DNA of 32,175 nucleotides from Jimgerdemannia flammicorona. Taxonomy: Eukaryota. A model generated the notes under the pieces. It saw only the letters and a list, made by a program, of their open reading frames with translations. It had not been told where the DNA came from and ran no database searches. Position 1 is the first letter of the stretch; each line of letters begins with the position of its first letter. Shown here piece after piece: positions 3,470-30,236 of the stretch. A program made the position numbers and the translations under genes. Location of the stretch: assembly GCA_003990765.1 (NCBI GenBank), contig RBNJ01000363.1, forward strand, positions 1 to 32,175. Reading direction: 5' to 3'.

Positions 3470-4883
3470 CAATAACAGATACAGAAGTTGATAAAAGAAT
3501 ACAAAGATATATTTACTACTATGTACAGTAACTTTCCACTATATCAATATAGAGAATATATTATATATATAGGAGATACTAAACCAATTCTTCAATGCCT
3601 CTATTGAACACTATACTACCCAATTGAGTTTGAACAACAACATATAGATGAAATATTACAAAACAGAGTTATCAGACCCTCATTAAGTCCCTGGACTTTA
3701 TCAGTAATTATAGTATCAAAGAAAGGAGGATAGAGACTAGTTGTAAACTTCAGAAAACTTAACAAGATTACTATAGAAGATATCTATCTACTATCAAAAA
3801 TTGATAACCTTCTCAATATTCTTAGAAAAGTCAAGTTTGTGATCACTACTGACTAGTTTCAAGGATTCTAAGTAATATCTATTGCTAAGAATAACATCTG
3901 TAAGACAGTCTTTATTACTAGATAAAGATAGTATAATATCTCTAAATATCATTTGGACTCTACAATATACTAGTCTCATTCTAGTAAATGATAAACTATA
4001 TCTATTAAGACCTCATTAGAAGAAACATATTAATATATATAGATGATATAATTATCTACTCAGAAACATTTGAACAACACTTATGAGACTTCTACAAAGT
4101 ATTTAATATCATCTGAAATTCAGAACTCAGACTTAATACCAAGAAGTACTTCTTTGGAAAACACTAAGTTGAATATCTAGGATATGTAGTTTCAGCCCAA
4201 GGAATCCATGCTGACTCATACAAGATAGAGGAAGTCAAGAGCTATCCAATCTCTGTCTCTGTAAAGAAAGTCTTATTTTTTCTCATATTAGTATCCTACT
4301 ACTGGTAGTTTATCTTAAGATTTTCAGACAAGATAGCTCTACTATTTAATATCTCTAAGAAAGACCAGTCATTCTACTGAAAGAAAGAATAGTAGAAGTC
4401 ATTTGACCTACTCACTGAAGCCCCTATTCTAGTACAATCAGATTTTGATAAACTATTTATCTTGACAACAGATGCCTCTACTCTTAGACTTGGATTAATT
4501 CTATCTCAGCTAGATGTTCAGAAGAAAGAACATATCATTAAGTATGCTAGCAAGACCACTAATAAGATATAAGTAGACTATAAAGCCACCAAGCTGAAAT
4601 ATCTTGCAGCAGTATGAACTATTGATCACTTTAGATACTATCTCTTGGAAAAAAAATTTACCCTTATTACTGACCACTAAGCTTACAATAGCTGTTCAAT
4701 AAACCAGAGCCTTCAGGAATCTTTACTAGATGGATCATGTCTCTACAAGAATACCAGTTCACTATTATTTACAAAAAAGACATCAAGAATTCTAATATTG
4801 ATACTCTATCAAGAACCCCACAAACTCAATAAGAAGATAAGGAGCCTCCATGAGAGAAGACTGCTTCCTACTCACCCAAATGA
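3470..4883 (+). pseudogene. Reverse transcriptase + RNase H relic
   Basis: IRPSLSPW, VNFRKLNKIT, IYIDDIIIYS (~4034), LTTDAS (~4462), LITDH and NIDTLSRTP (~4795-4820). Confidence 0.9.
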
Positions 4884-7800
4884 ATTAAGAACTATGCCTT
4901 GTCCTCACCTTGAGCCTATACTATAAAAACTTTAAAAAGAGAATTCAGTCAGCTTACAAACTGTTTATTCAAAGGAATTTTAAGAAATTTTAAGAAGGTG
5001 ATAGTGAACTTTGGAGAGTAAAAGGAGATCAATACACTTAAGTCTCACAAGAAGATGAAATACAGAAGATACTCACAATAAACCATAATCAGAATATATA
5101 TTGAGGAATTAGAGCTATGTACTATTATAAGAATACTAGTATAAAAATGAGAAAATAAATTTCAACACACATTTAATAATATGATATCTGTCAAAGATAC
5201 TGATAAAAACCAATCAATAAAGTACTACTAATATCAATTGCAGCACTAGCTAGAGCCTTTCAAAGACTGGGAATAGACATCATTAGCTCTCTACTAGTAA
5301 CTAGTCAGAGAAAATGCTATATTCTCACCATTGAAGATCATCTGATGAAATGGCCTAAAGTCTTTACCATTGAGACTGCTGATGCTCAGACAATCATTGA
5401 GATCTTATATGATGAAATTTTTAGCTGCCATGGTGTCTCCAAGGAAATCATCATAGACTAAGGTTAGGAATTTTTCAACAAAGCTATGAAGACCTTCATA
5501 GCCAACTTTAAAATCAAACTGTATCTAATAATAACCTATTACCTACAAGTAAATAAACTTACTGAATAAATAAACCAGACCATCAAGCAAGGCCTCAGCA
5601 AGATTAGAGACTAATTGAATTGGGATATCTACCTATTAGCAATTCCATTTAGCATCCATACTTCAAAAGCTACTACTACCCAACAGATCTCTTTTTATTT
5701 GGTATATGGCTAAGAAGTACAAAACCCAGCTGAATCAATCTAGTTAGATTTGATAAAATAAGTTACTAAAGAGATCACCTGGTTATATGAAGTATACCAG
5801 CAAGAATAAGGATTTATTACTAAGATATAAGAATATCAGAAGAAGTACTATAACTGCAAGGCTAACCTTGAATCTCTACTCATTAGACAATAAGTCTTAG
5901 TATACCATACTATCATATATAAAATAAAACTGGAGTATCAAACTTGAACTAAAATGAGAAAAACCCTATCTTATTTACCAAAAGTTCATAAACTATACTT
6001 TTTTTTTTTTTTTTAAAAGTTACTTGGACTTCCACTTTATTATCAAACTGCCTATGATGTATTAATACAAATGAACTCCCCACCCAATCCACTATATATG
6101 TACCCACAATCCTTCAGCTGATATCTCTTAGATCTCTCTCTCTACTCTCCATCACTCCCTGCTAAAGTACTACTCAGTCACCTATCACCTAAACCCTCCC
6201 TCCACTCTTCTTGCAAATATAATTCACCAGATTCCAACAGCTCCCCCCACCTGGTCCCCACCCTCTCCACCAACCATTCAAAATGTCAAGTAATAACTAT
6301 TCCCAATATACAACCCTAGCTCTAAATATAACCTGCTGGCCCTCCTCAAAGACATGAAGCCAATGACTGGTTATCTCTACCCAAATTATCAGAGCCCACC
6401 CCAAGGTCAACCATTCATCTCTCACCCTATCCACTAGCCTTTGCTGGAGGTCCCCCCATCTTCTTCCTTCTTCCCCCACAAGGGATCTCAATCTCAATCT
6501 GCTAGAAATACTATATTAAAACTTCTCCAAAACTTCACACTCTCCTAGCAAATGTTCAGGAATTTGTACCACTCCTCCTTCCTGACAATGTTTATATATT
6601 CCTCACACTCAAACACCCTGTCTGCCACCAAGTACCCAGACTGATAGTTCAATATCACATTTCACCTCAGGAACCTCTACCAGACTACCTAGAACTTGGG
6701 GAGAAGTTACTATATCATCTGCTTGCTCCAAGACCAAATACCATTTCAGTTCCACTTCTTACCAATTCCTATCCTCTGTCATGCTTTAGACCACATGTCC
6801 CCCCCAAGCCCTCTCATACATTCCATTCCATCTCCAAGCTGAAAGTCCTCTACCAATATATCTCCTAGTAGAAGCCAGTCTTATCTCCACATCTGTAGTC
6901 TCCAGTTCTCCACCCTCTCATCACTCCTCTATCAAAGTTCAATCCTTTTAGCACTATCTACTACTCTCCACCAAAAATCTTTATAATACATCCTCCTGCT
7001 TCTATCTATGACCACTATTGCAAGCAGATCACCAGTTGCTTCATGAGGGGAATACTGGACTTTCCACACCCTCTATATAAGTGACACCTACTCTCAGTCT
7101 CACAACTCACTTGCTCTCTTCAGCCACTATGCTTGCAGACAATATAGACACTTAGTAAAGTCTACTAAGCTCAGCCTACCTCTATCAACAGGCAAAGTCA
7201 GAACTTCTCAGCCTATCTGACTCTACCACCCAGCCCAAATCCACAATCTTACTATCTTCAGAAGTCACCTGATCACCTATGTCAGGAAGTCCAGATGATA
7301 CTCTATATACTACAGCTTTGGCATCCAATACATATTCAGCACTATCATCCTTTCTGCCAAGGATATATGCTGGCCACTCTACTATAAGAGAATATTCCCC
7401 CATACTAGTAGCTACTATTCCCACTATATATGAGGCAGAAGGGATCCATATACTGAAAAGTATATCTCCAAGTACCATACCAGTTCTTCTGCTGGAACTA
7501 CTGTCCCAATCATGTTACCTCTTACTATTCTGCCATCTAGTACTAGAGTCTCACATTTGTGTCAGTTGAGTTGAGTACCTGAGCCTCTCTCATACTATTC
7601 TACAGTTCTTCTTAATTCTTCTACATTTACTAATGAACCCAGTCTAACTACCATATCATCTGCAAAAACCCCAACCTTCCAGTTAATCCCTAAAATATCC
7701 AAACCCCCAATTTGATGCCAAATCCTATCTAATAGGGACTCTAAGAAAAGGATATATAGGATGGGTGATAAAGAGTCTCCTTGTAGCACCCCACAACCTA

Positions 7801-8862
7801 GTGGAAAAGTCATACCTCTATGCCCATTTACTATCAATACTGCTTAACTGTCCTCCAATAAACTAATCAATAATCTCCTGAATGCTGGGGGAACCCCCAC
7901 ACATTTCAGCACTCTCTCCAGCCAGACCCTCCTTACTCTATCATATGCCTTCTCCTGATCTAGAAATATTAACCAACCATCCACCCCAGCTGCCCAAGCC
8001 CCTTCAATCACTCCATGAATCCAGGCAGTGCCATCTCGGATCAATCAACCACCAACAAATCCCCTCTGCTCTACTCCTAGTATCTGCTGAGCAATCCCTA
8101 CAGCCTAGTCACCAAGATCTTTGTTACCAGCTTGTGGAGCATGATCAGTTGCCAGTTCTTCCAATCTTCCCTTCTTCCCTTATCCTAATAGAGCAAGGAG
8201 ACCAGCCCTAGACACTGGTCTCTCAATCCAAGTTTCAGACCAAAGAACCTCACTATACATCACTGTCATCTCCTCCAATACTACCTCCACCCCAGCCATC
8301 TTCTTTCAAAAATCCCAAGAAAGCCCATCCTTTCCTAGAGCTGTCCCCTTACTTGTTGAAGCCAAAACCTTGCTAACTTCCTCTCTCTGTACTGAATCTC
8401 CCAGTGTCCCCAGGCCCAGTACTGGGTCCAGATACCAATTCTCCAACTGCTGTTCAATGTTCAAGACATCCACACTCTCTTCTTTCTCATTCCATAAATT
8501 CTCCCAGTGAGTCCTCAGCAATCCCAGAATCTTAGGAGTCCCTGCCACTATCTCCTCATCCTCATCCAAAATACCATCTCACTGCTATCTAGTTCTTCAA
8601 GCTTAGAGTAACTATAAAAGAAACCTAGTGGGCCTCTCTCCCTCCTCTAACTCCTGCCACCACAACCTCACTACCATCTCCTTCAGCTGAGTCTCTTTCT
8701 CTATTTGTAGCACTTTCTTAAGCTCATCTACTTTCTTTTATATCTACAGAATATACCAATTGGCCACCCCTCTTTATAAACTATACTTATCAACTTAAGA
8801 CTTTAGATAAAGTTATACTCAAGATCAAGATACACTACAACCACATAAGATCTTATTACTTA
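4880..8862 (+). pseudogene. Integrase relic (separate ORF, split by LINE 6001-8775)
   Basis: Starts ATG AAT TAA GAA CTA TGC. Contains EPFQRLGIDI, KWP and HGVSKEIIID*G*EF. The C-terminal KLELK*EKPYLI..NYTYQLKTLD..IH reads in frame once the LINE and one TSD copy are removed. Confidence 0.85.
6001..8775 (-). mobile_element. 5'-truncated, degenerate LINE (non-LTR retrotransposon, L1/Tx1-like ORF2 RT region)
   Basis: Motifs GKDGL, FLDQEKAYDRV, GVLQGDSLSPILY and FADDMVV on the - strand. Poly(A) tail appears as a T run at ~5999-6014. 13-bp TSD ATAAACTATACTT at 5988-6000 and 8776-8788. Confidence 0.92.
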
Positions 8863-9659
8863 GCAGAAGCAAAATATATTTGAACAACTCTGTTCACTCC
8901 ATCTATATCACCTCTATTAGAGAATAACAGATACTTTATATGAAACTCAAGAAAGTTAATATCATTAAAATTAATCTTAAGTCTATTTATATAATAGATA
9001 TTACTACTTGAAATTACCTTAGATTATAGAAAATATTATTTCCAAGAGAGTTGAACTCCCTATCATAACAATGAGCTCTCACTCTAGACAAGGATGGTCA
9101 GTCCTTACAAATGTGCCAATAGTCTAAAAAAAAAAAAAAACTAAGACCTATTATTTCTATATAATCATCTTTACTGAGGATAGCTCTAATTTTGCAAGAA
9201 ATAGATATGATGACATCTTAGAAACTGATGACATCAAAGTAAAGAGACTGCTTAGACTTTATAAGTCTCTAGTTACAAATTATGACTCAACTATGACTCA
9301 TCTTGATCAGAAGATAATCTGCATCTGAATTCATTATAACTTATAGTGACCTCAGCAATATATTACTCCAAATCAGGTGACCCTACTCTCTGGACCAAAG
9401 AAGAAGACCCTTAGGATATAAAAGAAGTATCAAAAAGGAGTATAAGATATTATTTATAAATAAGAAACTCACTATAAAACAAAATACCTACTATCTGCCA
9501 AATAGCAAGATCAAGGAATCACTAAGATCTATCAGTCCAATATCAGATATTATCTAATATTAAAAGAGCTATAAGAATGCATATAAGAAGGACTCCAAGT
9601 CTGAATCTCTTTATAAGAAACCCATACTACTATACTCTCAACTATTGTGAAATGGAAAC

Positions 9660-15841: not shown

Positions 15842-16714
15842 TTATCAGGACCTATCCGTGATGGCATCGAGAGCTTCGGTCATTAGCTTCACACGGTGCG
15901 GACACATAAGCCCGAGGTCTATATGGCACCATATCACCAGCATGGACTCGAGCGACCGACTGTCGACCAGACGGATATACATATTCGCGTCTGGCTCACC
16001 ATACGATTCCGCTGGGTTCCGGAGTCGTTCGAGACATGCATGCGCCCATCATCGTCAGGAACTTGCTCACCACAGGACCACGCCCAATCGACGACGCACA
16101 GCAAGAGGGTGTGTTCGGGAGTGTGGAACTCCACGAGTGAATTGTCCTTCGTGCGAGTCAGGAGCAACTCAAGCGCTTTCTTAGAGAGGCCGTTCAGCTC
16201 TCCGACAGTAAGCGACGGCAGAATGGTTTCATCAGAACGTTGTATAGCTCCGCGGTTGCCAGGTTATCCGAGGAGGTGATGTCGACGGCTCCGTTGAGAA
16301 GTTTCCTGGCATCGTCGAGATCCTGGCCTTCATGACCTTGTTCGGCCTGTTCAAGAGCCAGCTTCATGAGTTTCGGGAGGCGGAGGGCCCCGCTTGGTAG
16401 GTGTCCAAGGCGTCGGAGGGTGAGAGCGGGTTAGGACCGATAGTTTCGGTGTGGGTGTAGTGCAGCACGGCGCGCACGGCTTTGGAATTGGTGCTCTTGA
16501 GATGGATGCGATGTAGAGGTTCGGGGCCGTAGAGCATGCGCTTGAAGACCGACGGCCTAGTAGCTAGGAAGGAGCGGCAGGCTTGGATCTCGATATTGTC
16601 AGAGCAGACAATGGTTAAATCGTGGAGAGTTGTGTCGGTGAGAAGGTTTGCAACGTCGTCCTTCAGGCTGAGATCGCTCTCGAGTTGGGTGGATATATCA
16701 ACCACAGTAACCAT
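15842..16714 (-). pseudogene. Truncated, frameshifted duplicate of the BTB-SPRY gene at 17971-19443 (SPRY absent)
   Basis: High nucleotide identity to ~18552-19443. In-frame deletion after YGPE and net 4-nt losses near 16385 and 16213. Homology stops at ITDRS followed by TGA TAA. Upstream motif GGTGAC.GTATCAGGTCATGGG is also duplicated (16800 / 19502). Confidence 0.9.
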
Positions 16715-17970
16715 AATGTAAAAAGGATCTGAAGAGGGAACCCGTATAGGTTTTAGTACCATGACAGAATGATGATCTATCCTCTGTAAGTAGAATTGTG
16801 GTGACAGTATCAGGTCATGGGGCACCCGGTGAATTTTCTCCTTCCGTCCAACCTTTAACTCAATTACCACCGAAGTATATATATATAACAAGGACGCCTG
16901 CCCAACGCAACGGCATCCCTCTTTTGTCCGGTCGCATTCTCGTCCCACACTCAACTATCGCCACGGCAATACCTCAAGATCAACTATATGACTAATTTCA
17001 AACACCCGAGTGTCCGATGTTTTTGTTCCACTCCCCGTAATATAGGTCCGTTTCAATTATGCCCTTGCCATCGTCTCCGCACACCACTCCTTTCTTCATT
17101 AACTGCAACATTCGAGAGATCCGTAACACTCTCCTCCATTCTTAACAGAGCAAGGCAATTGGAGATGCGCTTATCGCCGACTCCCGCTTTATGGTTTCTT
17201 TGGTCGAGAGATGGCCGCAAAGTCAAAGGTACTAAGTATATCAAATCAAATTTTCCAACATATCGCTAAAGGGCGACATTCAAATTTGACGTACGTTTAC
17301 TCGTTAGAATGCTATCACGAGCGTAAATCCAACGAGCCCAAAACAGCTATTTTGGACGATGCATCATAGAGATATCCTAGAAATCCTTTATCCCGGTTAA
17401 TAAGGATAAAATTTTGATTCCTGGATTTAAGTAACTGAAGTGTAATTGTGAATATCAAAAGATTTATTGAGAGCAGATCATACAAAGATCCACAAAAACA
17501 ATCACACTAGGAATTTGTTTTTTTAGGCGATTTCTGACAATTAGAGGATTCAGGATAGGTAGGCGACTGGGTGATTGAAGTGGTCCTGGCTTCGCGTCCA
17601 TCTGTCTGTTCTGTTCAGTCTCTGTTTCGTTCTTTGGTGTTGTAAAACAATGATAATTTGAATTTAAATGAGAAATTTTTCCAGATACATGGTACTGAAT
17701 ACACCTCACTATGTATATATCTCAGGCGGGAATGTTTTGCAGGCTGTAATTAATGACAGCGATGCATGCTAAGTATTGTAACTTGTCTGGATCATATTCG
17801 TCTGCGCTACGCTGTATGTGACAAAGCTTTTTGGTGAGCGTGAACCCACTAGTTTGCTTGTATTTGTAAATTTCATGGCTATCCAATTTCCATAAGATGA
17901 TTACATTCAAAGCTATAACACATTGAGAGGATCGATTATAAAAAATACAGGACTTTGAAGTACTATGATT

Positions 17971-19443
17971 CTAATTATATATTTGACGGTATCGATATTT
18001 GCTCCCCGTCCAAAGCGTCACGGCAGGATAGATCTTGTCAGGAAGACTTCGCCACACGACACCGCAGTCATGCCCATTGAGAGAGAAGGAACAGGTTCGA
18101 TTGTTCATGTTCAGGCGGAATGTGATAATATCATTTTCTTTGAGTTGGTGGTTGCATGCGGTCGCACCGGGGTAAATTAGGTGGTAACTAGGTTGGCATG
18201 AATAGAAGCACCACACAAAACGAGAATTCGAATTTAAGTTCTTGTTGAATTGTTTGAAATCCTCTCCAACAAATCCCACGGCGTTGATTACAGCTTTCAA
18301 CCACACGCCGCTCGATTCAATGACAATCTCCCATTCGCACGACGTTGTGAACGGTATCTCCAATCTGGCTGAGCAAAAGGTGTCGGACGCGTTGTGATAC
18401 TCAATCACTGCACCGTTTTCCGAGACGACAACCCCTTCTCCGGTCCTCCATTTGTATACCTGTATTGGTTGCACACCACGGATTTTGGATGGATGGCCGG
18501 GAGAACATTTGACGGTGGCACAAGCGATCTGGGAGAGTGTCAGGTATTGGGGGGACCTATCCGTGATGACGTCGATAGCTTCGGTCAGTAGCCTCACGCG
18601 GTGTGGACAAATAAGCTTGAGGTCTATATGGCGCCACATCATCTGCACGGACTCGAGCGACTGACTGTCGACCAGACGGACATACATATTCGCGTCTGGC
18701 TCACCATACGGTTCCGCTGGGTTTCGGAGTCGTTCGAGACATGCATGCCGCTCAGCATCGTCAGGAACTTGCTCACCACGGGACCACGCCCAATCGACAA
18801 CGCATAGAAAGAGGGTGTGTTCGGGAGTGTGGAACTCCATGAGTGAATTGTCCTTCGTGCGAGTAAGGAGCAGCTCAAGCGCTTTCTTGGAGAGGCCATT
18901 CAGCTCTCCGACAGTAAGCAGGCGACGGCAGAATGGTTTCATTAGAAGGTTGTATAGCTCCGCGGTTGCCAGGTTGTCTGAGGGGGTGATGTCGACGGCT
19001 CGGTTGAGAAGCTTCCTGGCATCGTCGAGATCCTGGCCTCCATAACCTTGTTCGGCCTGTTCGAGAGCCAGATTCATGAGTTTCGGGAGACGGAGGAGGG
19101 CCGCCGCTTGGTAGGTGTCCAAGGCGTCGGAGGGTGAGAGCGGGTTAGGGCCGATAGTTTCGGTGTGGATGTAGTGCAGCACGGCGCGAACGGCTTTGGA
19201 ACTGGTGCTCTTGAGATGGATACGATGCGGGGTGTGGGAATCCCGAGCTTCGGGGCCGTAGAGCATGCGCTTGAAGACCGACGACCTAGTAGCTAGGAAG
19301 GAGCGGCAGGCTTGGATCTCGATATTGTCAGAGCAGACAATGGTTAAATCGTGGAGAGTTGTGTCGGTGAGAAGGTTTGCAACGTCGTCCTTCAGGCTGA
19401 GACCGCTCTCGAGTTGGGTGGATGTATCAACCATAGTAACCAT
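17971..19443 (-). CDS. BTB/POZ-(BACK-like)-SPRY/B30.2-like (ConA-fold) protein, putative Cullin-3 substrate adaptor, 490 aa
   Basis: Intact intronless ORF. HDLTIVCSD..ACRSFLATRSSVFKRMLYG..VLHYIHT BTB; PEHTLFLCVVDW BACK-like; EWEIVIE..DIITFRLNMNNRTCSFSLNG..LPDKIYPAVTL SPRY. Confidence 0.9.
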   Translation of the reverse strand: MVTMVDTSTQLESGLSLKDDVANLLTDTTLHDLTIVCSDNIEIQACRSFLATRSSVFKRMLYGPEARDSHTPHRIHLKSTSSKAVRAVLHYIHTETIGPNPLSPSDALDTYQAAALLRLPKLMNLALEQAEQGYGGQDLDDARKLLNRAVDITPSDNLATAELYNLLMKPFCRRLLTVGELNGLSKKALELLLTRTKDNSLMEFHTPEHTLFLCVVDWAWSRGEQVPDDAERHACLERLRNPAEPYGEPDANMYVRLVDSQSLESVQMMWRHIDLKLICPHRVRLLTEAIDVITDRSPQYLTLSQIACATVKCSPGHPSKIRGVQPIQVYKWRTGEGVVVSENGAVIEYHNASDTFCSARLEIPFTTSCEWEIVIESSGVWLKAVINAVGFVGEDFKQFNKNLNSNSRFVWCFYSCQPSYHLIYPGATACNHQLKENDIITFRLNMNNRTCSFSLNGHDCGVVWRSLPDKIYPAVTLWTGSKYRYRQIYN

Positions 19444-19894
19444 AATGTATTGTTAAAGTGAAAAGGATTGCGTTACTGGTTATACCATGACGTAATTAAG
19501 TGGTGACGGTATCAGGTCATGGGACCGTCGTTTTCCAAACCTTTCAAGGCTGTCACAGCTTCTCCCAAACTCATTTACAAAGTAATGTGATGTATTAACT
19601 GATTCAGACTAACAAGGATATGAACGAATATGTTATTCATGGCAGCTGAGCTACCAACTGTAAAATTTGGTCTTTCACAGGTGCCGCTAAGCTCCAGGTA
19701 TCGGTTTTTGCGCGTATTGCGCACACGCAAACCAGGAGGCTTTCGCCGATTGAAAAGTGTGGAATCGTACGTTGGAACTAGAGCCATAATGCGGTTTTGG
19801 ATCTTCGTTTCAATGCGCAGGCACGCGCAAGACTTAGGACGCAGCAAAAACGGTGAACGCGGGTAAAGGCACCAACGGTCATGGTACCAAACAG

Positions 19895-21909: not shown

Positions 21910-22676
21910 ATATAATAGTATTATATATTAATATATTTAGTTCTATTATAATAAATAGAGTTCTTTACCATAGTAATTATAAACTAATTATTCTGATAGA
22001 TAAACATAGAGTGCTATTTCTGATTAAACCCAAGTTTCTTTAATAGCTAATATAGCTAAATAATTTTCTTTATTACTATAGATAATGCTTGGTACTCTAC
22101 TTATATAGATGATATTATTACTAAATTCTACTTATATATTTACTATATAATGACTTCTTTATTATTTAACTAAAAGAAGTATCCAGTTATAGATTAGTAA
22201 TTATCTAAGTCTCTGATTCAATTAGTATTTATATATCAGATAGTTATATATATGCTATTCTTTCATTATTGTTATTACTATTACTCTTGCTCAATCTATT
22301 AAGAGTGAGTATATAGTATATCATTCCTTTAATATATTTAATAATTCTCTTAATAGTATTCTAATATAAATTATTATAGTATAATAAGTACTATACTATC
22401 TTATTTATAGTATATAAAATATCAGACCTTATTTCTAATATAAGATATATATATGAGAGAATTAACTATTTATCAATAGAGAATATTGATATAGTTTTTT
22501 TTTAATATAATATCAGACTTTCTTAACTTTATCAAAGTTTCTATAGAGATATTTACTAACTTATATTTACTTATATTGAATTATTCAAGAATAATATAGA
22601 TATAAGTTAACTATGAGAGATATATAGTATATACACTTCTGTCATACATATATAATAGATATCTTCAAATATATAT

Positions 22677-23143
22677 TGTAACATAGTGGATGCTTACTCT
22701 TGAAAGTACATCAGATTTCTGTATCTTGAAAACTTGACTGTTCTGACTCTCGCAGAGTCTCTTGAAGTTGCAGGGGAGGGTGGGTGGGTTCGAAGTGTAT
22801 CTGCCTGCAGGCTTACTAGTTCCTTTGCTATCTCTTTGATTTGAACTATTTTGATCTGAGGTTTATTCACTCAAAGATACTGGGTTATTTATACAAGTTT
22901 GCTAGCTATGAGATGGTTACTGGGTTACATGGCTAAGTTATGAGTCATTTAATACTTTGCGAAATGTTTTGCCAGTTGCGAAATGCTATACTATATCAGG
23001 AAACTCAATCTTGCACTTTGCGAAATATTTAGCAAGTTGCGAAATCAAGGACTGTTAACTATGTGGCTATACTACTTTGGGACTGGGTGCAATCAAGTAT
23101 CTATTCCCTATTTCCTTCTTCCAAATCTGGCTATACTGTCACA
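22677..23143 (-). repeat. 3' LTR (467 bp)
   Basis: TGTAAC...GTCACA on the + strand; direct repeat of 28913-29322. Confidence 0.95.
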
Positions 23144-23154
23144 ACTTCCTCCTG
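23144..23154 (-). promoter_or_regulatory. Polypurine tract
   Basis: (C)AGGAGGAAGT immediately before the TGTGAC start of the 3' LTR on the - strand. Confidence 0.7.
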
Positions 23155-23180: not shown

Positions 23181-23642
23181 CTATTCAAACTCCCAAGCTT
23201 CAATGGTCTGTATGGTCTTGTATTGCACAATTTGTTACATTACTGTTTCCCAATGGTATCGCCTAACTTGGTCGAAGTCTGAGGGAGTCACTCCTCGCAG
23301 ATGGGCTAGTGCTGATTCATCCTCTTGGAATAGCTTGTAGATTCTCTTAACAATAGTGATCTGGGAATAGGAGAGCTGGCATTCTGCGATCTAATTTTCT
23401 TTGGTCATTTCTGGGTCTTGATTGAGTACTTGGCCAAGTTTGAAGTACTCTTGGAATTCGTTTCGATGCTGATAGGCCTTGAAGTGTGAGATCCAAGAGA
23501 GATGAGTCTGCACGATGCTTTGGATACTGTCATAAGATTCCTCTATGGTCGGAGGCTCAGTGGTGCACCATTGTCTCTTGATGGCTCTTTGGGCAGTACT
23601 AGTGATCTTGAGTGCCATCACAGTACTTTTGTTACTAGCCAT
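23181..23642 (-). pseudogene. Accessory ORF3 (~153 codons, two internal stops), unknown function
   Basis: The ORF-track 83-aa ORF continues in frame past TAG as IAECQLSYSQITIVKRIYKLFQEDESALAHLRGVTPSDF...; a homologous relic lies at 9660-9890. Confidence 0.7.
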
Positions 23643-24825
23643 GATATTTCTTGAGTTGGTTTTGGTAAATGGTGGTGGGGATTATTGTACCTGAGGGTTT
23701 TCATAGCCAAAAGGTGGTTCCTTTTATATCTTACACAAGGTAAGATCCCTCCCACTTGGGCTCCAGTTTTCGTAACCATGAAGCTTCAACCATATTCCGA
23801 TATACTAGGACTTTGTCTCCTATCTTGATAATCTTCAAGGGTTTGTGGGTCTTTTCTACATTCCTCCATTATAGTGTCTGTGCCTTCGTTATGTAATCCT
23901 CAGCCTTCTTCCTGATTTGGTATAGTCTCTGTATTTCTATGTCCACATATTTCCATACAGCATCTCCATTGGATGACAGCATTCCCTGAGAACATTCTTC
24001 TCCAAACAGTATTTCTTGAGAGGTAAAGTGGGTGCTTTGTGATTGGATATCCCGGAGAGCAGATAATGCTATTGGTAGATAGTGATCCCAGTTCTCATAG
24101 TTATTGCAGATCTTAGCAATAACATTCTTGAGGGTTTTGTTGGTCCTTTCTACTTGTCCATTTTCTTGAGGGTGATATGCTGTAGTCTGAATATGCTGGA
24201 TCTTGTACTTCTTGTAGAAAACTTTGAAGAACTGATTCACGAATTCGGTTCCTCTATCTGTAGTTACTTGTGTTGGAGTCTTGAATCGGCAGATGATTTC
24301 TTTGTGGAAGAAATCAGCGATTGACTGTGCATTGGCTTCCATAAGGGGTCCTGCTTCTATCCATTTTGTAAAGAGGTCTACAATGATGATGATGTATCAG
24401 TTGCCAGTCAAGGTCAAGGGTAGGGGGCCGATTATATCTATTGCAATGTGGGCAAATGGTACTGATTCTATGTGTGCTGATCCTGGGGCTTGATTTCATT
24501 GGTCTTGTTTCTGTTTCTAGCATTTGTCGCAGATCTTGACAAATTGTCTGATATCTTCCTCCATCCCTGGCCATCATATTGTTCTTCTTGCTTTGTCATA
24601 TGTATTTGTTCCTCCTAGATAGCCAAGTTCATGTACTGATTTCATTGCTTGCTCCTTCTTGTGTTCTGATATGACTAGTAGTTTTCCTTTCTTCAGTATT
24701 TCTCCATCAGTTTCGAATTGTTTCTATGTTCTGTTGATAATCATTTGTATCCATTCTTCCAGATGTTGGGGCATCTTTTGCTGTTCTAGGTATGTGATAA
24801 TTCTGTAGTAGAGCTCCTTATTCAT
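23635..24825 (-). pseudogene. Integrase, separate ORF (~396 codons, in-frame stops)
   Basis: MNKELYYRIITYL..VHELGYL..CDKC (HHCC zinc region, second His now Tyr)..IAIDIIGPLP..TDRGTEF..YHPQENGQVER..KLEPKWEGSY..KKYHG*, all in one frame that differs from the RT-RH frame. Confidence 0.9.
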
Positions 24826-24850
24826 GGCGATTTTGTAGGGGTGGGGTCCT

Positions 24851-27800
24851 TCAGGGTGTCCGTGAGAGGGCATCTGCATTAGCATTGGTTCTTCCAGAGT
24901 GATGTATGATGGTTATGTCATAAGCTTGCAACTTCATTATCCATCTGGCATAGATTCCTTTGGGTTGTTCAGTTGTCAGTAGCCAGGTAAGAGCTGAGTG
25001 GTCTGTTTGGATGGTGAAGTGTCTTCCAGCCAAGTAGTAGTGAAACTTTTCTATAGCCCAGATAACTGTGAGGCATTCCAACTTGTAGGATTCGTATTCT
25101 TTTTCAGCTCCTCGGGTTCTGCGGCTGAGGTTTGTAATGATATACTCCACTTTATCTTTCTTTTGAGCTAGGACTGCTTCTAGTCCTTGTGCACTTGCAT
25201 CAGTCTGTAGGATGAATTCTTGAGTCCAGTCAGGTCTTCTGAGGATGGGTGCCTGGGTCAGTCTGACCTTGAGTTCATCAAATGCTTTTTGTTGTCTGCC
25301 AGTCCACTGGAACTTGGTATCCTTCTTGTTAAGTTTGTAGATTGGTCCCGCAATATTAGAAAATACTCTAATAAATCTGCAATAATAGGAGGTAAGTCCC
25401 ATGAAGGCTTGGACTTCCATAACAGTGGTGGGTCTTGGGTATGCTGCTACTGCTTGTATCTTGAGGGGGTCCATGTGTGTTCCATCTCAGTTGATGATGT
25501 GGCTGAGATAGGAGATCTCAATTTCTGCGAACTTGCACTTCTTGGGTTTGATGTAAAGGCCATATTGTCTTAGTCTCTCCATTATCTGCTGTATGTGCTG
25601 CAGATGTTCCTCAGGTGTCTTACTGTAGATGATTACATCATCGATGTAGACCATCATTCATCTTCCCATGTCATAGTGGAAGATTTTGTTCATCATTCAC
25701 TGGAAACTTACTAGTGCATTGCACATTCCGAATGGCATTCGTAGGTAGACATAGGTTCCATCTGGAGTGATGAAAGCTGACTTTTCACTTGCCATATCTG
25801 TGAGTCCGATTTGGTGGAATCCTGAGTATAAGTCCAAGGTGCTGTAGTATTGTGCTTCATCTCTCAGTATTATGAGAATGTCATTGATGAGGGGCAGTGG
25901 TTGGCGATCCTTCTTGGTAACCATGTTGAGTTTTCTGTAGTTGACACAGAGTCTTGGGGCGAATTCTCCAGGCTTGCTGCCTTTTTTCAGGACTAGTACA
26001 ATAGGTGAGGACCAGGGGCTGCTTGCTTCTTTAATGATACCGGCTTCTTCCATCTGCTTGATTTCTTCTCTGAGCCATTCTTGGTAGGCTGGTGGGACAG
26101 GTCTTGCTTTCTGATAAATTGGTTCGGTGTCTCCAGTATCTACTTCATGATAGTAGTGTGGGGTCTTTCCTTTGATATCCTTGAAATCTGTAGCAAGGAC
26201 GTCTTCGAATTCATGGAGTATTTTCTTGAGTTCTTTCTTGAGTGGAAATTCATTTCTGATGGTGTAGCTATGCTTGCTTGTGTTTTCCTCCTTCTTATGC
26301 TCAAGTTCGGTGATCTTGGTGTTGGCAAATACTCCTCTTCCTGTAGATCCAAATCCTTTCTTTCCTCTTCTTGTTTCCTCCAGCTTCTTAACTTCTATGA
26401 TCTTTGGTTGTAGGATCAGAAAGATCAACATTTGCGCCAATCGGTCCTTCTTTTTGACTGAGAATGGGATTGTAGGATTGTGATTCCTAGCAATGAGTAG
26501 AATTTCTCCAGTGTAGTCTGAATCGATGACTCCTCCTTTGATTGTAATTTCACTTCTAGCCAGGCTGCTTCTTATCTTGAGAATCCCAACATGATTCTTT
26601 GGGATAGTCATCTCCAATCTGGTTGCAAGTAGGGTAGTTGTCTGGGGTTCCAGTATGGTTTCTTCTACTGTAGTGATGTCCATTTTGGCTGCATTTTCTG
26701 ACTTGTATTCTGGCAAGACTGTGTCAGGGTGGATCCTTCGAATCTTGACCTTGATTTCTTCTTCATCATCACTGTCCTCCAGGAGAGCTGGTGATTCGTC
26801 ATCTTCCTCCTTCTCTTCTTCCCTGATCTGTTTTTCAAGAGCTTTCTGCCTTCTTGCCTGGTAGATCTTCCTGATTCCGATGGTGTACTGATAGCAATCA
26901 TTGACATGCTCCATGCAGTACATCTTGATCCTGTGAGGACAGACTCCTTGTGGAGCATAACCTTCTGTGATCTTCTTATACCATTCTTCTTCACTCATCC
27001 ATCTGACTTTCTTCTTCTTTGGAGTAGTCACCATATAAGCTTCCTCCTGCTTGCTCTCTTCTTCCTCCATGTCAGGCAGGACTCCTTTGTTGACATTGAT
27101 GGGAATTCATATCTTCTGTCCCCGGTAGGTGATCTGCATCTTCTGGGCATTGAGGTCTATTACTGCCTTGGCTTTGTGAAGCCATTGATTGCCAATGAGG
27201 ATGTCATAGTTGGTGGCATTGGTTACGATTACATCTACTGAGATGGTTGCTCCTCCAATCTTGATGGGAATGTCTTGGATCTTTCCCAGAGGTGTGGCTC
27301 TTGTACCATCAGCTGTGACAAACACCAGCTTAGTTGCCTCTTCCACATCCCAACCTAGGCAGTCTGCTGCCTTCTTGCTGAGGAGATATCCACCTGCTCC
27401 CATATCAATGATGGCCTCAAAGATTCTATCTTCAATTTGATATGTGGCATATGCAGAGGTTTTGCGATTGTCCTCACTTTCTTCTCCTGAGTCCTCTTGA
27501 GCGTTATTGGCCTCGGTTATCTTCTATCTCTGTTCTATAGTTGTTTTGGCAAGTCTAAACCTCATTTGCTGTCTGAATATAGGGATTTCTGCAAGCTGGC
27601 CAAAGGTTGCATTGACCTTTTGTTGGCTGAGGTCCTTGAAGATATCATACTTGAAGGTCTTGGTCTTGTGAAGCTTCTTCTCTTTTTCTCCTTTACTGGC
27701 TGGAGTGGTTCCTTGGATGATATCTTGAACTACTTGCTCCAGCTCTGTATCTTGGTCCATCTCTTCAGCTTGGCTTTCTGTAGCAGTTTCCATCTGCTTT

Positions 27801-28810
27801 TCCACTGGGTTCTTCTTGGGTCTTCCTGGTGGTCTCTTGTAGGGTTCTTTGCAAGCATCCTTCTTGGTGGTCTGAGCAGGATAGGCCTCCCATTCTTCTT
27901 CATCAGAATCTCCAATCTCCTCGAAGGTAATTGTATTGGCCTGCTTCTTGTTTTGTATGGTATTGCTTGGTTGAGCCTTGTGCTTGGTTTCGCTCATGCA
28001 TTCATAGGAGTAGTGGCCTTCTTCTCCACAAGTGTAGCAGATACCTTTCTTCTTATCTGAGGTGGTGGTGAACTTCTGGACAGGGCAGTGGTCTCTTCCT
28101 TGAATTTCCTTTACCACATCTCCCAGGTGGGCAGTCATTTCGGCAAACCTTTTGGCGAGTTCCTCCATAGGGTCACTGTTCTTTTGCTGCTCTATAGCTT
28201 TTGGTTGAGGTGTATTTCGATTGATCATTGTGGTAGGGATCACACTGGTTGCCTTGGGTGCCTCAATTCTGACTCCTGTGACCCTTTCCATTGTATGATC
28301 TTGTGGATGTCTGGCTATCTAGTATCGCTGAGCATAGGTGACCTTCTGTGGCAGATTCAGAATTACTGGTGATGAGCGGATGGCCATGGCTATTTCTGGA
28401 TGAACTCCTTTCATGAAGATTGCTTTGGCTACTTGATCTCAGATAGCAGCAGCATAATCTGCAAGAATTATCTGATATCAAATTCTGATATAGAATGTGT
28501 TTAGATCCTCGCTCATTCCTTGGCATGTTGTGTTGAGCTGATCCTTCAGGGCTTGCTTGATCTCATCTGTGTAATATGTATTTCGGAGCCAGGTCTTCTG
28601 TGCTGTCAGTATGGCATCAGCATCATTTCCTGCATGGGTTGTGGCTGTGAATGCTGCTCTGGCAGGGCCTCATAGGCTAAAGGGCATGAGGGCTACTTGC
28701 TGTGCTGCTGTCAGGGTCCTTACAGTGACATACTGCTCAAAATCATCAATGAAGGTGATGATTGATTCGTCTGAGATATATCTGTGGAATACTGGTGGTC
28801 TCATATCCAT
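24851..28810 (-). pseudogene. gag-protease-dUTPase-RT-RNase H polyprotein in a single frame (1320 codons, broken by in-frame stops)
   Basis: ORF-track pieces starting at 28291, 27403, 27070 and 25474 share one frame. Motifs: CYTCGEEGHYSYEC knuckle, AIIDMGA protease (DTG>DMG), SPWSSP, LDLYSGFHQI, VYIDD, LQTDAS, NADALSR. Confidence 0.93.
26339..26755 (-). other. dUTPase domain between protease and RT
   Basis: AAKMD (I, decayed), RSSLA (II), GGVIDSDYTGEI (III), DRLAQ (IV) and RGKKGFGSTG (V). Confidence 0.95.
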
Positions 28811-28909: not shown

Positions 28910-28912
28910 AGT

Positions 28913-29322
28913 TGTAATGTAGCAGATGCTTACTCTTGAAAGTACGTCGGATTTCTGTATCTTGAAAACTTGACTGTTCTGACTCTTGCAGAGTCTCTTG
29001 AAGTTGCAGGGGAGGGTGGGTGAGTTCGAAGTGTATCTGCCTGTAGGCTTACTAGTTCCTTTGCTATCTCTTTACTTTGAACTATTTTGATCTGAGGTTT
29101 ATTCACTCGAAGATACTGGGTTATTTATACAAGTTTGCTAGCTATGAGATGGTTACTGGGTTACATAGCTAAGTTATGTATGAGTTATTTAACACTTTGC
29201 AAAATATTTAGCAAGTTGCAAAATCGAGAACTGTTAACTATATGGCTATACTACTTTGGGACTGAGTGTGATCAAGTGTCTATTCCCTATTTCCTTCTTC
29301 CAAATCTGGCTATACTATCACA
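28913..29322 (-). repeat. 5' LTR (410 bp)
   Basis: Direct repeat of 22677-23143, lacking a 61-bp block and carrying a 4-bp insertion. Confidence 0.95.
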
Positions 29323-30236
29323 ATATATATATATTGTCTATATTAGTTATCTTGAATTTCTTATACAGGGCTTCTTTAACTCTATTAAGTTTATTTTTCA
29401 TTACAATAATAATGATGACATTTATCCATATATCTATAAATACTACTCTATTAGTGTAGTATTGAATATATATATAGTTATCTGCTTTATAATATATAAA
29501 GTTATTATTAAAGAGATATTTATTGATTTTTCTATTCTACAAATGAGTTGCTTGCTTAATGCTATATAATTCTTTATATAGTTTATATATATACTTCTGA
29601 TAAAGAGAAGTATAAATATTCTAAGACATTTATAAGATAATCTATTACAATATAAATAATCAGTAATAATATTGAGAACAGATCAAGAATAAGATTGCTA
29701 CAGCTATTCTTATGGCTATTGAATATCAATAGATCTCTATAGAACTATCCTCTATCAATATATAAAATTCTATAGACCCTGATCCAAATGAAGCCCAACA
29801 ATATCTTAAAAGAATTCAATATTTCTAAGCCTTCTACTATTAACAAGAGTTGAAGAAATATTATAAGATTAGATGACTCATCTGCCAATAAGCAACTTTC
29901 AGCAAAGTCAAGCAACTGTTCTATCTATTCATTAATAACTATATCTACATCATTATAAAAATATTATATATTCTTTTCTATACTCAGTTTTAAGTTCTTA
30001 ACTATTTCTATAGAATATCTTTAGAGAATATTATCAATCTGACTGATAAATACTAGAGTGATATTATCTTTCAAGTAGTCTAGTATACAGCCCTTCAGTT
30101 TGAAGAATATTTAGAATTTTAGTACTGATCTTATTGAGTAGGTTCTGATAAAAAAGAGAAAAATATAATAGTTTATTATATATTAAACAAAGCTACTGAA
30201 AATTTCTAATAAATAGTCATAAAATATACTAATAAG

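Follow-up and report, generated by a model that had tools for sequence, protein, structure and literature searches.

A 32,175-nucleotide (nt) stretch of contig RBNJ01000363.1 from the fungus Jimgerdemannia flammicorona (assembly GCA_003990765.1, positions 1 to 32,175; hereafter the window) carries on its minus strand a Ty3/Gypsy retrotransposon in which the integrase (IN) is encoded by an open reading frame (ORF) of its own. The element lies between two long terminal repeats (LTRs), a 5' LTR at 28912-29323, with approximate ends, and a 3' LTR at 22676-23144, which pair as direct repeats (D1, D6) of 92-94% identity, so that the coding region is flanked by long terminal direct repeats as in Metaviridae. 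ORF1 (24818-28810) begins with an ATG at 28810, ends with a TAA at 24820-24818 and encodes, in a single frame, gag with a zinc knuckle, protease, dUTPase, reverse transcriptase (RT) and RNase H (RH), as judged by its translation and by matches to Pfam zf-CCHC, dUTPase, RVT_1, and RT_RNaseH; the window copy contains ten premature stops. ORF2 (23632-24825) encodes, from its own Met, an integrase with an HHCC zinc finger and a DDE core (PF17921 and PF00665 in relatives), in which D155, D215, and E251 are invariant in the alignment, and its family stop is a TAA at 23634-23632, preceded in the window copy by eight internal stops and a TAG at 23637. ORF3 is open over 83 codons and a stop (23391-23642); its ATG at 23642 overlaps the 3' end of IN, and it is matched by phmmer to the ORF3 of L001, a 6.5-kb metagenome contig with 74% nt identity to the minus-strand element. 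The Pfam order, protease, RT, and RNase H followed by IN 3' of RH, is that of Metaviridae.

Canonical Ty3/Gypsy elements carry IN at the C-terminal end of the Pol polyprotein, from which the protease releases it. The window element shares with Ty3 and most Metaviridae its LTRs, the Gag zinc knuckle, the PR-RT-RH-IN order (PR, protease), and the HHCC finger and DDE core, and departs from them in that IN is a separate cistron and that gag to RH form a single ORF without a frameshift. The gag-to-RH frame reads ...NANADALSRTP up to a TGA at 24853-24851, and its next stop is the TAA at 24820-24818. The sequence gccATGaataag sets the IN ATG at 24825-24823, opening the frame MNKELYY..., which is +1 relative to the RH frame, and this ATG and the ORF1 TAA overlap within the octamer ATGAATAA (24818-24825), as cATGaaTAA. 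A second, strongly decayed element on the plus strand has a comparable junction at 4800-4883, where an RH motif (DTLSR, 4800-4814) is followed by an IN ATG at 4880 (MN*ELC) that is overlapped, as ATGA, by a TGA at 4881-4883; its integrase remnant can be followed by frame translation over 4880-6000, the end being approximate. Here IN is offset from RH by -1 (or +2), so that the offsets of the two window elements differ, and two further RH-frame stops lie upstream, at -50 and -29. An earlier note made from the sequence of the window alone had described gag through RNase H of the minus element as one frame with IN starting at 24825 in another, the start at 4880 of the plus element as out of the RH frame and overlapped by an RH-frame stop as ATGA, and IN as a separate, out-of-frame ORF with its own ATG in both elements, and translation agrees with it on all of these points.

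Both window copies are decayed, the minus copy carrying ten premature stops in Pol and nine in IN (including the TAG at 23637), which lends some support to a reading in which the two frame offsets are independent insertions or deletions (indels) acquired by dead copies after insertion. Comparison of the minus element with L001 speaks against such an origin, as the minus copy has decayed by substitution only: coding-region indels between the two are all multiples of 3 except for one adjacent 28+1 pair, and all ten premature stops of the Pol frame, as well as those of the IN frame, are point substitutions. L001 has an unbroken Pol of 1281 codons that reaches from early gag through RNase H, with ...ADALSRMPRRTQPPYNHHE* as its last residues, and the RH-to-IN frame change is common to L001 and the window copy. 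Opposite the window TGA at 24853 in the RH tail, L001 has CGA, and its Pol continues ...ALSRMPRRTQPPYNHHE*; the true end of ORF1 is therefore the TAA inside ATGAATAA, and the suspicion of the earlier note that the TGA at 24851-24853 is a CGA>TGA decay product is borne out. Related loci were drawn from metagenomes, in place of all genomic copies, and RH and IN are split in all nine that span the junction, among them loci with intact ORFs such as L003, in which Pol has 1577 codons and the IN frame is open over 429. A single continuous RH-IN frame, which the note had named as the observation that would overturn its interpretation, was found in no relative within the clade, and that interpretation, in which the lineage may be a polycistronic LTR retrotransposon, is supported. 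Substitution-only decay, intact relatives with the same split, and more than 90 stand-alone IN ORFs rule out post-insertion indels as the source of the offsets, a reading to which we assign a vanishingly small probability.

The pattern of decay has features of its own. Substitutions that separate the window copy from its relatives are mostly transitions, on the coding strand, toward A/T (in the L001 comparison, G>A 332, C>T 255, A>G 225, T>C 191), and the same bias appears against related contigs of sequencing runs X1 and X2. With 1520 related contig pieces in run X1, the family must be abundant in one soil sample at least. Early in gag, the window (28672-28670, minus strand) and L001 (771-773) share an in-frame TGA (...SL*GPAR...), flanked by synonymous differences between the two copies, and other relatives have at this position Arg (L003, L002, P0252) or Met, His, Gln, or Glu. 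The shared TGA could be a recurrent CGA>TGA change, the mark of a stop-bearing master copy, or a site of read-through.

On the side of Pol, the RT-RH part of L001 was used as a query and the best 120 matches were considered. The closest relatives, at 50-55% identity, all contain a dUTPase and none contains an rve or zinc-binding integrase domain, and their Pol ends lie 0-18 residues from that of L001. A FastTree phylogeny of 117 RT-RH rows (L001 and 116 of the 120 listed matches, four with short RH alignments having been dropped) places the dUTPase-bearing sequences in a clade of 18 rows with support of 100, all of which end after RH. Overall, 42 of the 44 rows in which Pol stops after RH fall inside one group of 58 rows (support 85) that includes only two fused rows, and a clustering of labels as strong was obtained in none of 500 shuffles; the split is therefore a character of the clade. 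The inclusion of IN in the Pol polyprotein ORF, a typical feature of Metaviridae, does not hold here, since IN is a separate ORF at all 11 junctions that could be read as DNA. A sister group of Pol ORFs (P0290, P0291, P0293, P0298, P0302, P0305, P0311, P0326, P0331, and P0336) is likewise without IN and has an extra C-terminal tail of 200-340 residues after RNase H that ends in a conserved ...[AE][DEP]LD. Another Pol group ends 1-3 residues past the LSR motif.

The counterpart of this truncation is an integrase with a start codon of its own. The IN frame of the window (P0001), its eight stops read as X, returned 224 matches among proteins of 231-737 residues, the best 120 of which have 37-78% identity and, where full-length, roughly 390-570 residues. 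Among these best 120 of 224, 89 begin exactly at the column of the window Met, six have this Met together with an upstream extension, and the remaining 25 are fragments that begin downstream of it, such that Met occupies the start column in all 95 homologues that cover it and no other residue is found there. In an alignment of 36 IN sequences with a mean column identity of 42%, this residue (Met26) is invariant in 36 of 36, alongside the DDE residues. Conversely, none of 14 fused-Pol outgroups has Met at this column, the Q-x-x-D-P-x-L of these proteins aligning with M-[ND]-x-E-L. Proteins longer than 737 residues gave 114 matches, only distant fused Pols with 24-32% identity at full coverage, and the top identity among them, 39%, extends over 26% of the query. 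A scan of genome contigs yielded no clade members, its 15 loci being partial matches from residue 33 or later at no more than 40% identity, and neither did a scan of viral contigs, with four loci at no more than 31% identity.

Some related loci are arranged differently around the same start. In two more distant loci, L043 (3712-4230) and L047 (922-1356), the same M-N-x-E-E-Y start of IN lies about 375-385 nt 3' of the Pol stop, and the intervening nucleotides are conserved between both, in-frame stops included; this interval may be a conserved non-coding spacer. The IN ORFs of L024, L030, and L032 open at the homologous Met (MDRQLY..., MELPLY...), and no RNase H was found by tblastn in the 450-730 nt upstream, which may reflect a differing gene order.

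The 11 junctions, comprising nine metagenome loci (L001, L002, L003, L005, L007, L008, L009, L011, and L014) and the two window elements, share a tight arrangement of stop and start that takes several forms. Counted from the A of the IN ATG to the start of the ORF1 stop, the stop is at +5 in the window minus element, L001, and L005 (the octamer of L001 is identical to the window's ATGAATAA, and that of L005 is ATGAATAG), at +7 in L002 (ATGGATCTAG), at +8 in L007 (ATGAACACTGA), at +1, as ATGA, in L003, L014, and the window plus element, at -2, as TAATG, in L008 and L009, and at -5 in L011 (TGATCATG). In all 11, then, the ORF1 stop lies within -5 to +8 nt of the IN ATG and the IN ATG is the ATG closest to that stop, with the frame offset being +1 in four junctions and -1 in seven and adjacency being kept throughout. 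Past the LSR motif, ORF1 continues with a tail of 11 to 27 codons, depending on the locus, which is always open up to the ATG. Under a crude random-stop model, the joint probability of such placement is about 1e-9 over nine loci, a set that includes two close kin. Of the three properties that the earlier note had proposed to check for conservation, the IN Met is invariant and the RH stop abuts the ATG in 11 of 11 junctions, whereas the frame offset varies. The 60 nt 5' of the IN ATG (24826-24885 in the window) form a C-rich, G-poor tract with CCCACC-like runs. Its C content is 33.6%, compared with 24.1% elsewhere in the elements, and it ranks in the top 5% of windows in five of 11 loci; the tract may act as a signal or simply result from Pro, His, and Thr codons.

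Taken with the phylogeny, it is almost certain that IN constitutes a separate cistron after a gag-to-RNase H ORF. Both window elements belong to a large Ty3/Gypsy clade, present in the window fungus and in many soil-metagenome contigs, that is built from three cistrons and not from gag and pol. The split is ancestral to this clade and under selection, with the ORF1 stop held near the IN AUG whatever the frame offset. The best mechanism for IN synthesis, and a moderately probable one on present sequence comparisons, is termination-reinitiation. Full-length RNA would be translated into ORF1 (Gag-protease-dUTPase-RT-RNase H), and a fraction of the ribosomes that end ORF1 would stay bound and resume translation at the IN AUG next to it, yielding a sub-stoichiometric IN whose release is independent of the protease. 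ORF3 might be made likewise or from a separate RNA, which is the weaker part of the model. The Met is constant among split INs and missing from fused ones, and the stop shadows this Met across frames; both observations argue that initiation is coupled to termination. At all 11 junctions the stop lies well inside the distance of about 20 nt that characterizes reinitiation at termination upstream ribosome-binding sites (TURBS). Position -3 of the Kozak context is A, G, C, or T across the junctions, which fits the context-independence of TURBS-type restart described in a review (PMC10275272).

Coupling of this kind has precedents outside LTR retrotransposons, which, according to another review (PMC5902531), use frameshifting, unlike their non-LTR counterparts. 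In TURBS systems, exemplified by caliciviruses and influenza B M2/BM2, stop and start lie within 20 nt and 3-20% of ribosomes restart independently of Kozak context, so that the downstream protein is made as a minor, fixed share, efficiency falling beyond a stop-start distance of about 30 nt (PMC10275272). The present elements resemble them in having a long upstream ORF with a stop that overlaps or abuts the AUG (AUGA, UAAUG) and differ in that they are LTR retrotransposons of a fungal host and that the TURBS core motif is missing upstream of all 11 junctions. The hypovirus CHV1 uses stop-restart at UAAUG (PMC2699510). CHV1 and the victoriviruses are likewise translated by fungal ribosomes, and their AUGA and UAAUG are found, respectively, at L003, L014, and the window plus element and at L008 and L009, but they are RNA viruses, and no consistent structure is predicted at the elements described here. 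In work attributed to Li and colleagues in 2015, victoriviruses are said to need an upstream pseudoknot. The only retrotransposon example given in the available portions of two reviews is the non-LTR element SART1, whose ORF1 and ORF2 are coupled at UAAUG (PMC10275272, PMC5902531). SART1 is similar in that a stop-start overlap couples two retroelement cistrons, and dissimilar in that it couples a gag-like ORF1 to ORF2 and needs a downstream hairpin, whereas here the coupled cistron is an IN placed after RT-RH, with no significant folding in the 100 nt downstream. A further comparison is offered by cauliflower mosaic virus (CaMV), in which a distance of 1 nt separates ORFs I-III, and the overlaps among ORFs III-V measure 19 and 38 nt (PMC5902531). 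Caulimoviridae, which are related to Ty3/Gypsy and also reverse-transcribing, have long ORFs in series that meet at fused stop/start codons or overlap briefly, but they have no integrase and depend for reinitiation on TAV, and ORF3 here has no Cauli_VI match at E<=0.1. In the literature searched, which left Repbase notes and subscription journals outside its scope such that prior notice is possible, no paper was found to describe an LTR retrotransposon whose integrase is a cistron of its own, coupled through stop and start, and a split integrase is not mentioned in the available portions of two surveys of fungal LTR elements (PMC3248453, PMC2864245).

Several observations weigh against reinitiation. 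The sample is small, only 11 junctions being readable as DNA, and adjacency is partly built into the conserved N-terminus of IN, as the ATG-A of Met-Asn creates a TGA in one frame and AAT-AAG/AGA supplies a TAA/TAG in the other, although these codons do not account for the Met-Asp lineages, whose stop sits just upstream. ORF1 is very long (3.8-5 kb), and upstream ORFs of this length are not known from textbook cases of reinitiation. The TURBS core TGGGA, which as UGGGA in the RNA belongs to a motif complementary to 18S rRNA, occurs in none of the 11 junctions within 120 nt upstream, and folding of positions -90 to +12 and +1 to +100 gave z-scores of -2.7 to +1.8 with no consistent stability, pseudoknots being outside the model. 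Finally, the overlap of IN and ORF3 is 41-68 nt in three of six loci, past the distance of about 30 nt at which TURBS-type restart is reported to lose efficiency (PMC10275272).

The lack of a TURBS motif and of consistent structure, together with IN-ORF3 overlaps of up to 68 nt, would also suit an arrangement in which IN, and perhaps ORF3, is made from its own mRNA, produced by splicing or an internal promoter, or from an internal ribosome entry site (IRES), with adjacency being the scar of a polyprotein split in a compact element; the C-rich, G-poor upstream tract could in that case be an unstructured entry site. Retroviral env is expressed from a spliced subgenomic RNA, and in Oikopleura the Tor elements rely on an internal promoter. 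A separate mRNA or IRES does not predict adjacency, however; a separate mRNA puts no constraint on the site of the ORF1 stop, and yet this stop is held within -5 to +8 nt in 11 of 11 junctions with both offsets. Moreover, the linker from RH to the ATG appears by inspection to be too short for an intron (in L003, 11 codons from LSR to stop). We consider this explanation unlikely, though far from negligible. An Ogre-like intron bridging RH and IN was rejected on account of the same short linker and the invariant Met. Among contigs of three sequencing runs, of DNA or unclassified type, two joints were found, each in one low-depth contig.

A programmed frameshift or other recoding event near the ORF1 stop would instead produce a Pol-IN fusion to be cut by the protease, a route that is very unlikely here. 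It has some attractions: three of the seven -1 loci (L002, L009, and L014) have in-phase X XXY YYZ heptamers at 18-33 nt 5' of the ATG, 33-141 nt 5' of the Met are open in the IN frame, and Ty1 and Ty3 make Gag-Pol by +1 frameshifting (PMC5911963). These heptamers, however, fall where a conserved peptide of the Pol tail (LPK, GPF) is encoded, and the other four -1 loci and all four +1 loci lack not only a heptamer but also any Ty-type +1 site or A/T run of at least 6. Programmed frameshifting goes with a conserved slippery site and a single direction, whereas the direction of the required shift here differs between sister lineages, and this variable offset argues against frameshifting and fits coupling. 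Nor does frameshifting require a Met, which is nonetheless found in 95 of the 95 covering homologues among the best 120 of 224, against 0 of 14 fused outgroups. Transcriptional slippage was rejected, as no overlap zone contains an A/T run of at least 6.

The second junction of the element, between IN and ORF3, presents a weaker case for coupling than the first. ORF3 opens just past the last conserved IN motif (KKY-H/Q), in another frame, and its ATG lies upstream of the IN stop by 5 nt in the window, 17 in L007, 26 in L003, 41 in L001, 50 in L002, and 68 in L009, overlaps that may be likened to the 19-38-nt overlaps of CaMV. The window junction reads cATGgcTAG (23643-23635, minus strand), and the earlier note had seen in it the same ATGnnTAR geometry as at the RH-IN junction. 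The motif is indeed present, but the spacing is not conserved, and the TAG at 23637 is itself a product of decay: related contigs have a sense base at this position in 99.2 of 103.2 (run X1) and 32 of 32 (run X2) depth units, such that the family stop is the next codon, at +8 from the ATG. L001 is likewise without any stop at the corresponding position.

The product of ORF3 belongs to a family that extends across the clade. The ORF3 of L001 has 153 amino acids, to which that of the window is matched with a phmmer E of 6.5e-46, and from this length the original end of the window ORF3 is inferred to have been near 23184. Across the clade, the ORF3 products are homologous to one another and link up in a connected phmmer graph, and a profile built on them matches at least 150 clusters at E<=0.001 among 1.84 billion representatives (81 at E<=1e-10), the matches being 58-318 residues long and none capable of including an integrase. 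The predicted fold, modelled with confidence, is all-helical, with seven helices and a mean predicted local distance difference test score (pLDDT) of 86.4. Three ORF3 proteins matched no Pfam family, Cauli_VI included, at E<=0.1; Foldseek found nothing in the PDB at E<=0.001; in a VIA-wide comparison of folds the highest Z, 4.5, was lower than helical bundles would be expected to score; and the Atlas contains unnamed clusters only. A more elaborate proposal, which we regard as decidedly improbable, holds that a widespread clade of LTR retrotransposons in fungi and soil eukaryotes translates its full-length RNA polycistronically in the manner of caulimoviruses, that IN and ORF3 are both made by reinitiation after the 4-5 kb ORF through a non-TURBS signal, perhaps the C-rich tract, and that the conserved helical ORF3 acts as an element-encoded reinitiation or IN-delivery factor.

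Elsewhere in the window, a BTB-SPRY gene is recognized by Pfam at 17971-19443, and its closest protein clusters are recorded from Mucoromycota, which points to an early-diverging fungal host. A direct duplication of about 870 bp (15848-16720 and 18553-19449), 90-98% identical and spaced by about 2.71 kb, extends over the 5' part of this gene. Beyond the IN remnant of the plus-strand element, positions 6000-9000 have a GC skew of -0.38 to -0.57 at a GC content of about 42%.

The separation of IN from Pol has consequences for annotation and for experiment, since pipelines that expect a fused Pol would label such elements broken or integrase-less, and the intact natural variants of the junction (ATGA, TAATG, ATGAATAA, and TGATCATG) constitute a ready series for reporter assays. 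If coupling is true, LTR retrotransposons would join a short list of eukaryotic users of reinitiation, which in the available portions of two reviews consists only of RNA viruses, CaMV, and SART1 (PMC10275272, PMC5902531). If the polycistronic reading is true, a stand-alone IN must enter particles or find the cDNA outside Gag-Pol. In textbook LTR retrotransposons and retroviruses, IN is the tail of Gag-Pol, which fixes its dose, its packaging, and its dependence on the protease. A deep and species-rich clade with a freed IN suggests some other control of IN dosage, possibly a eukaryotic stop-restart after a very long ORF, and raises the question of the route by which IN reaches the reverse-transcribed DNA.

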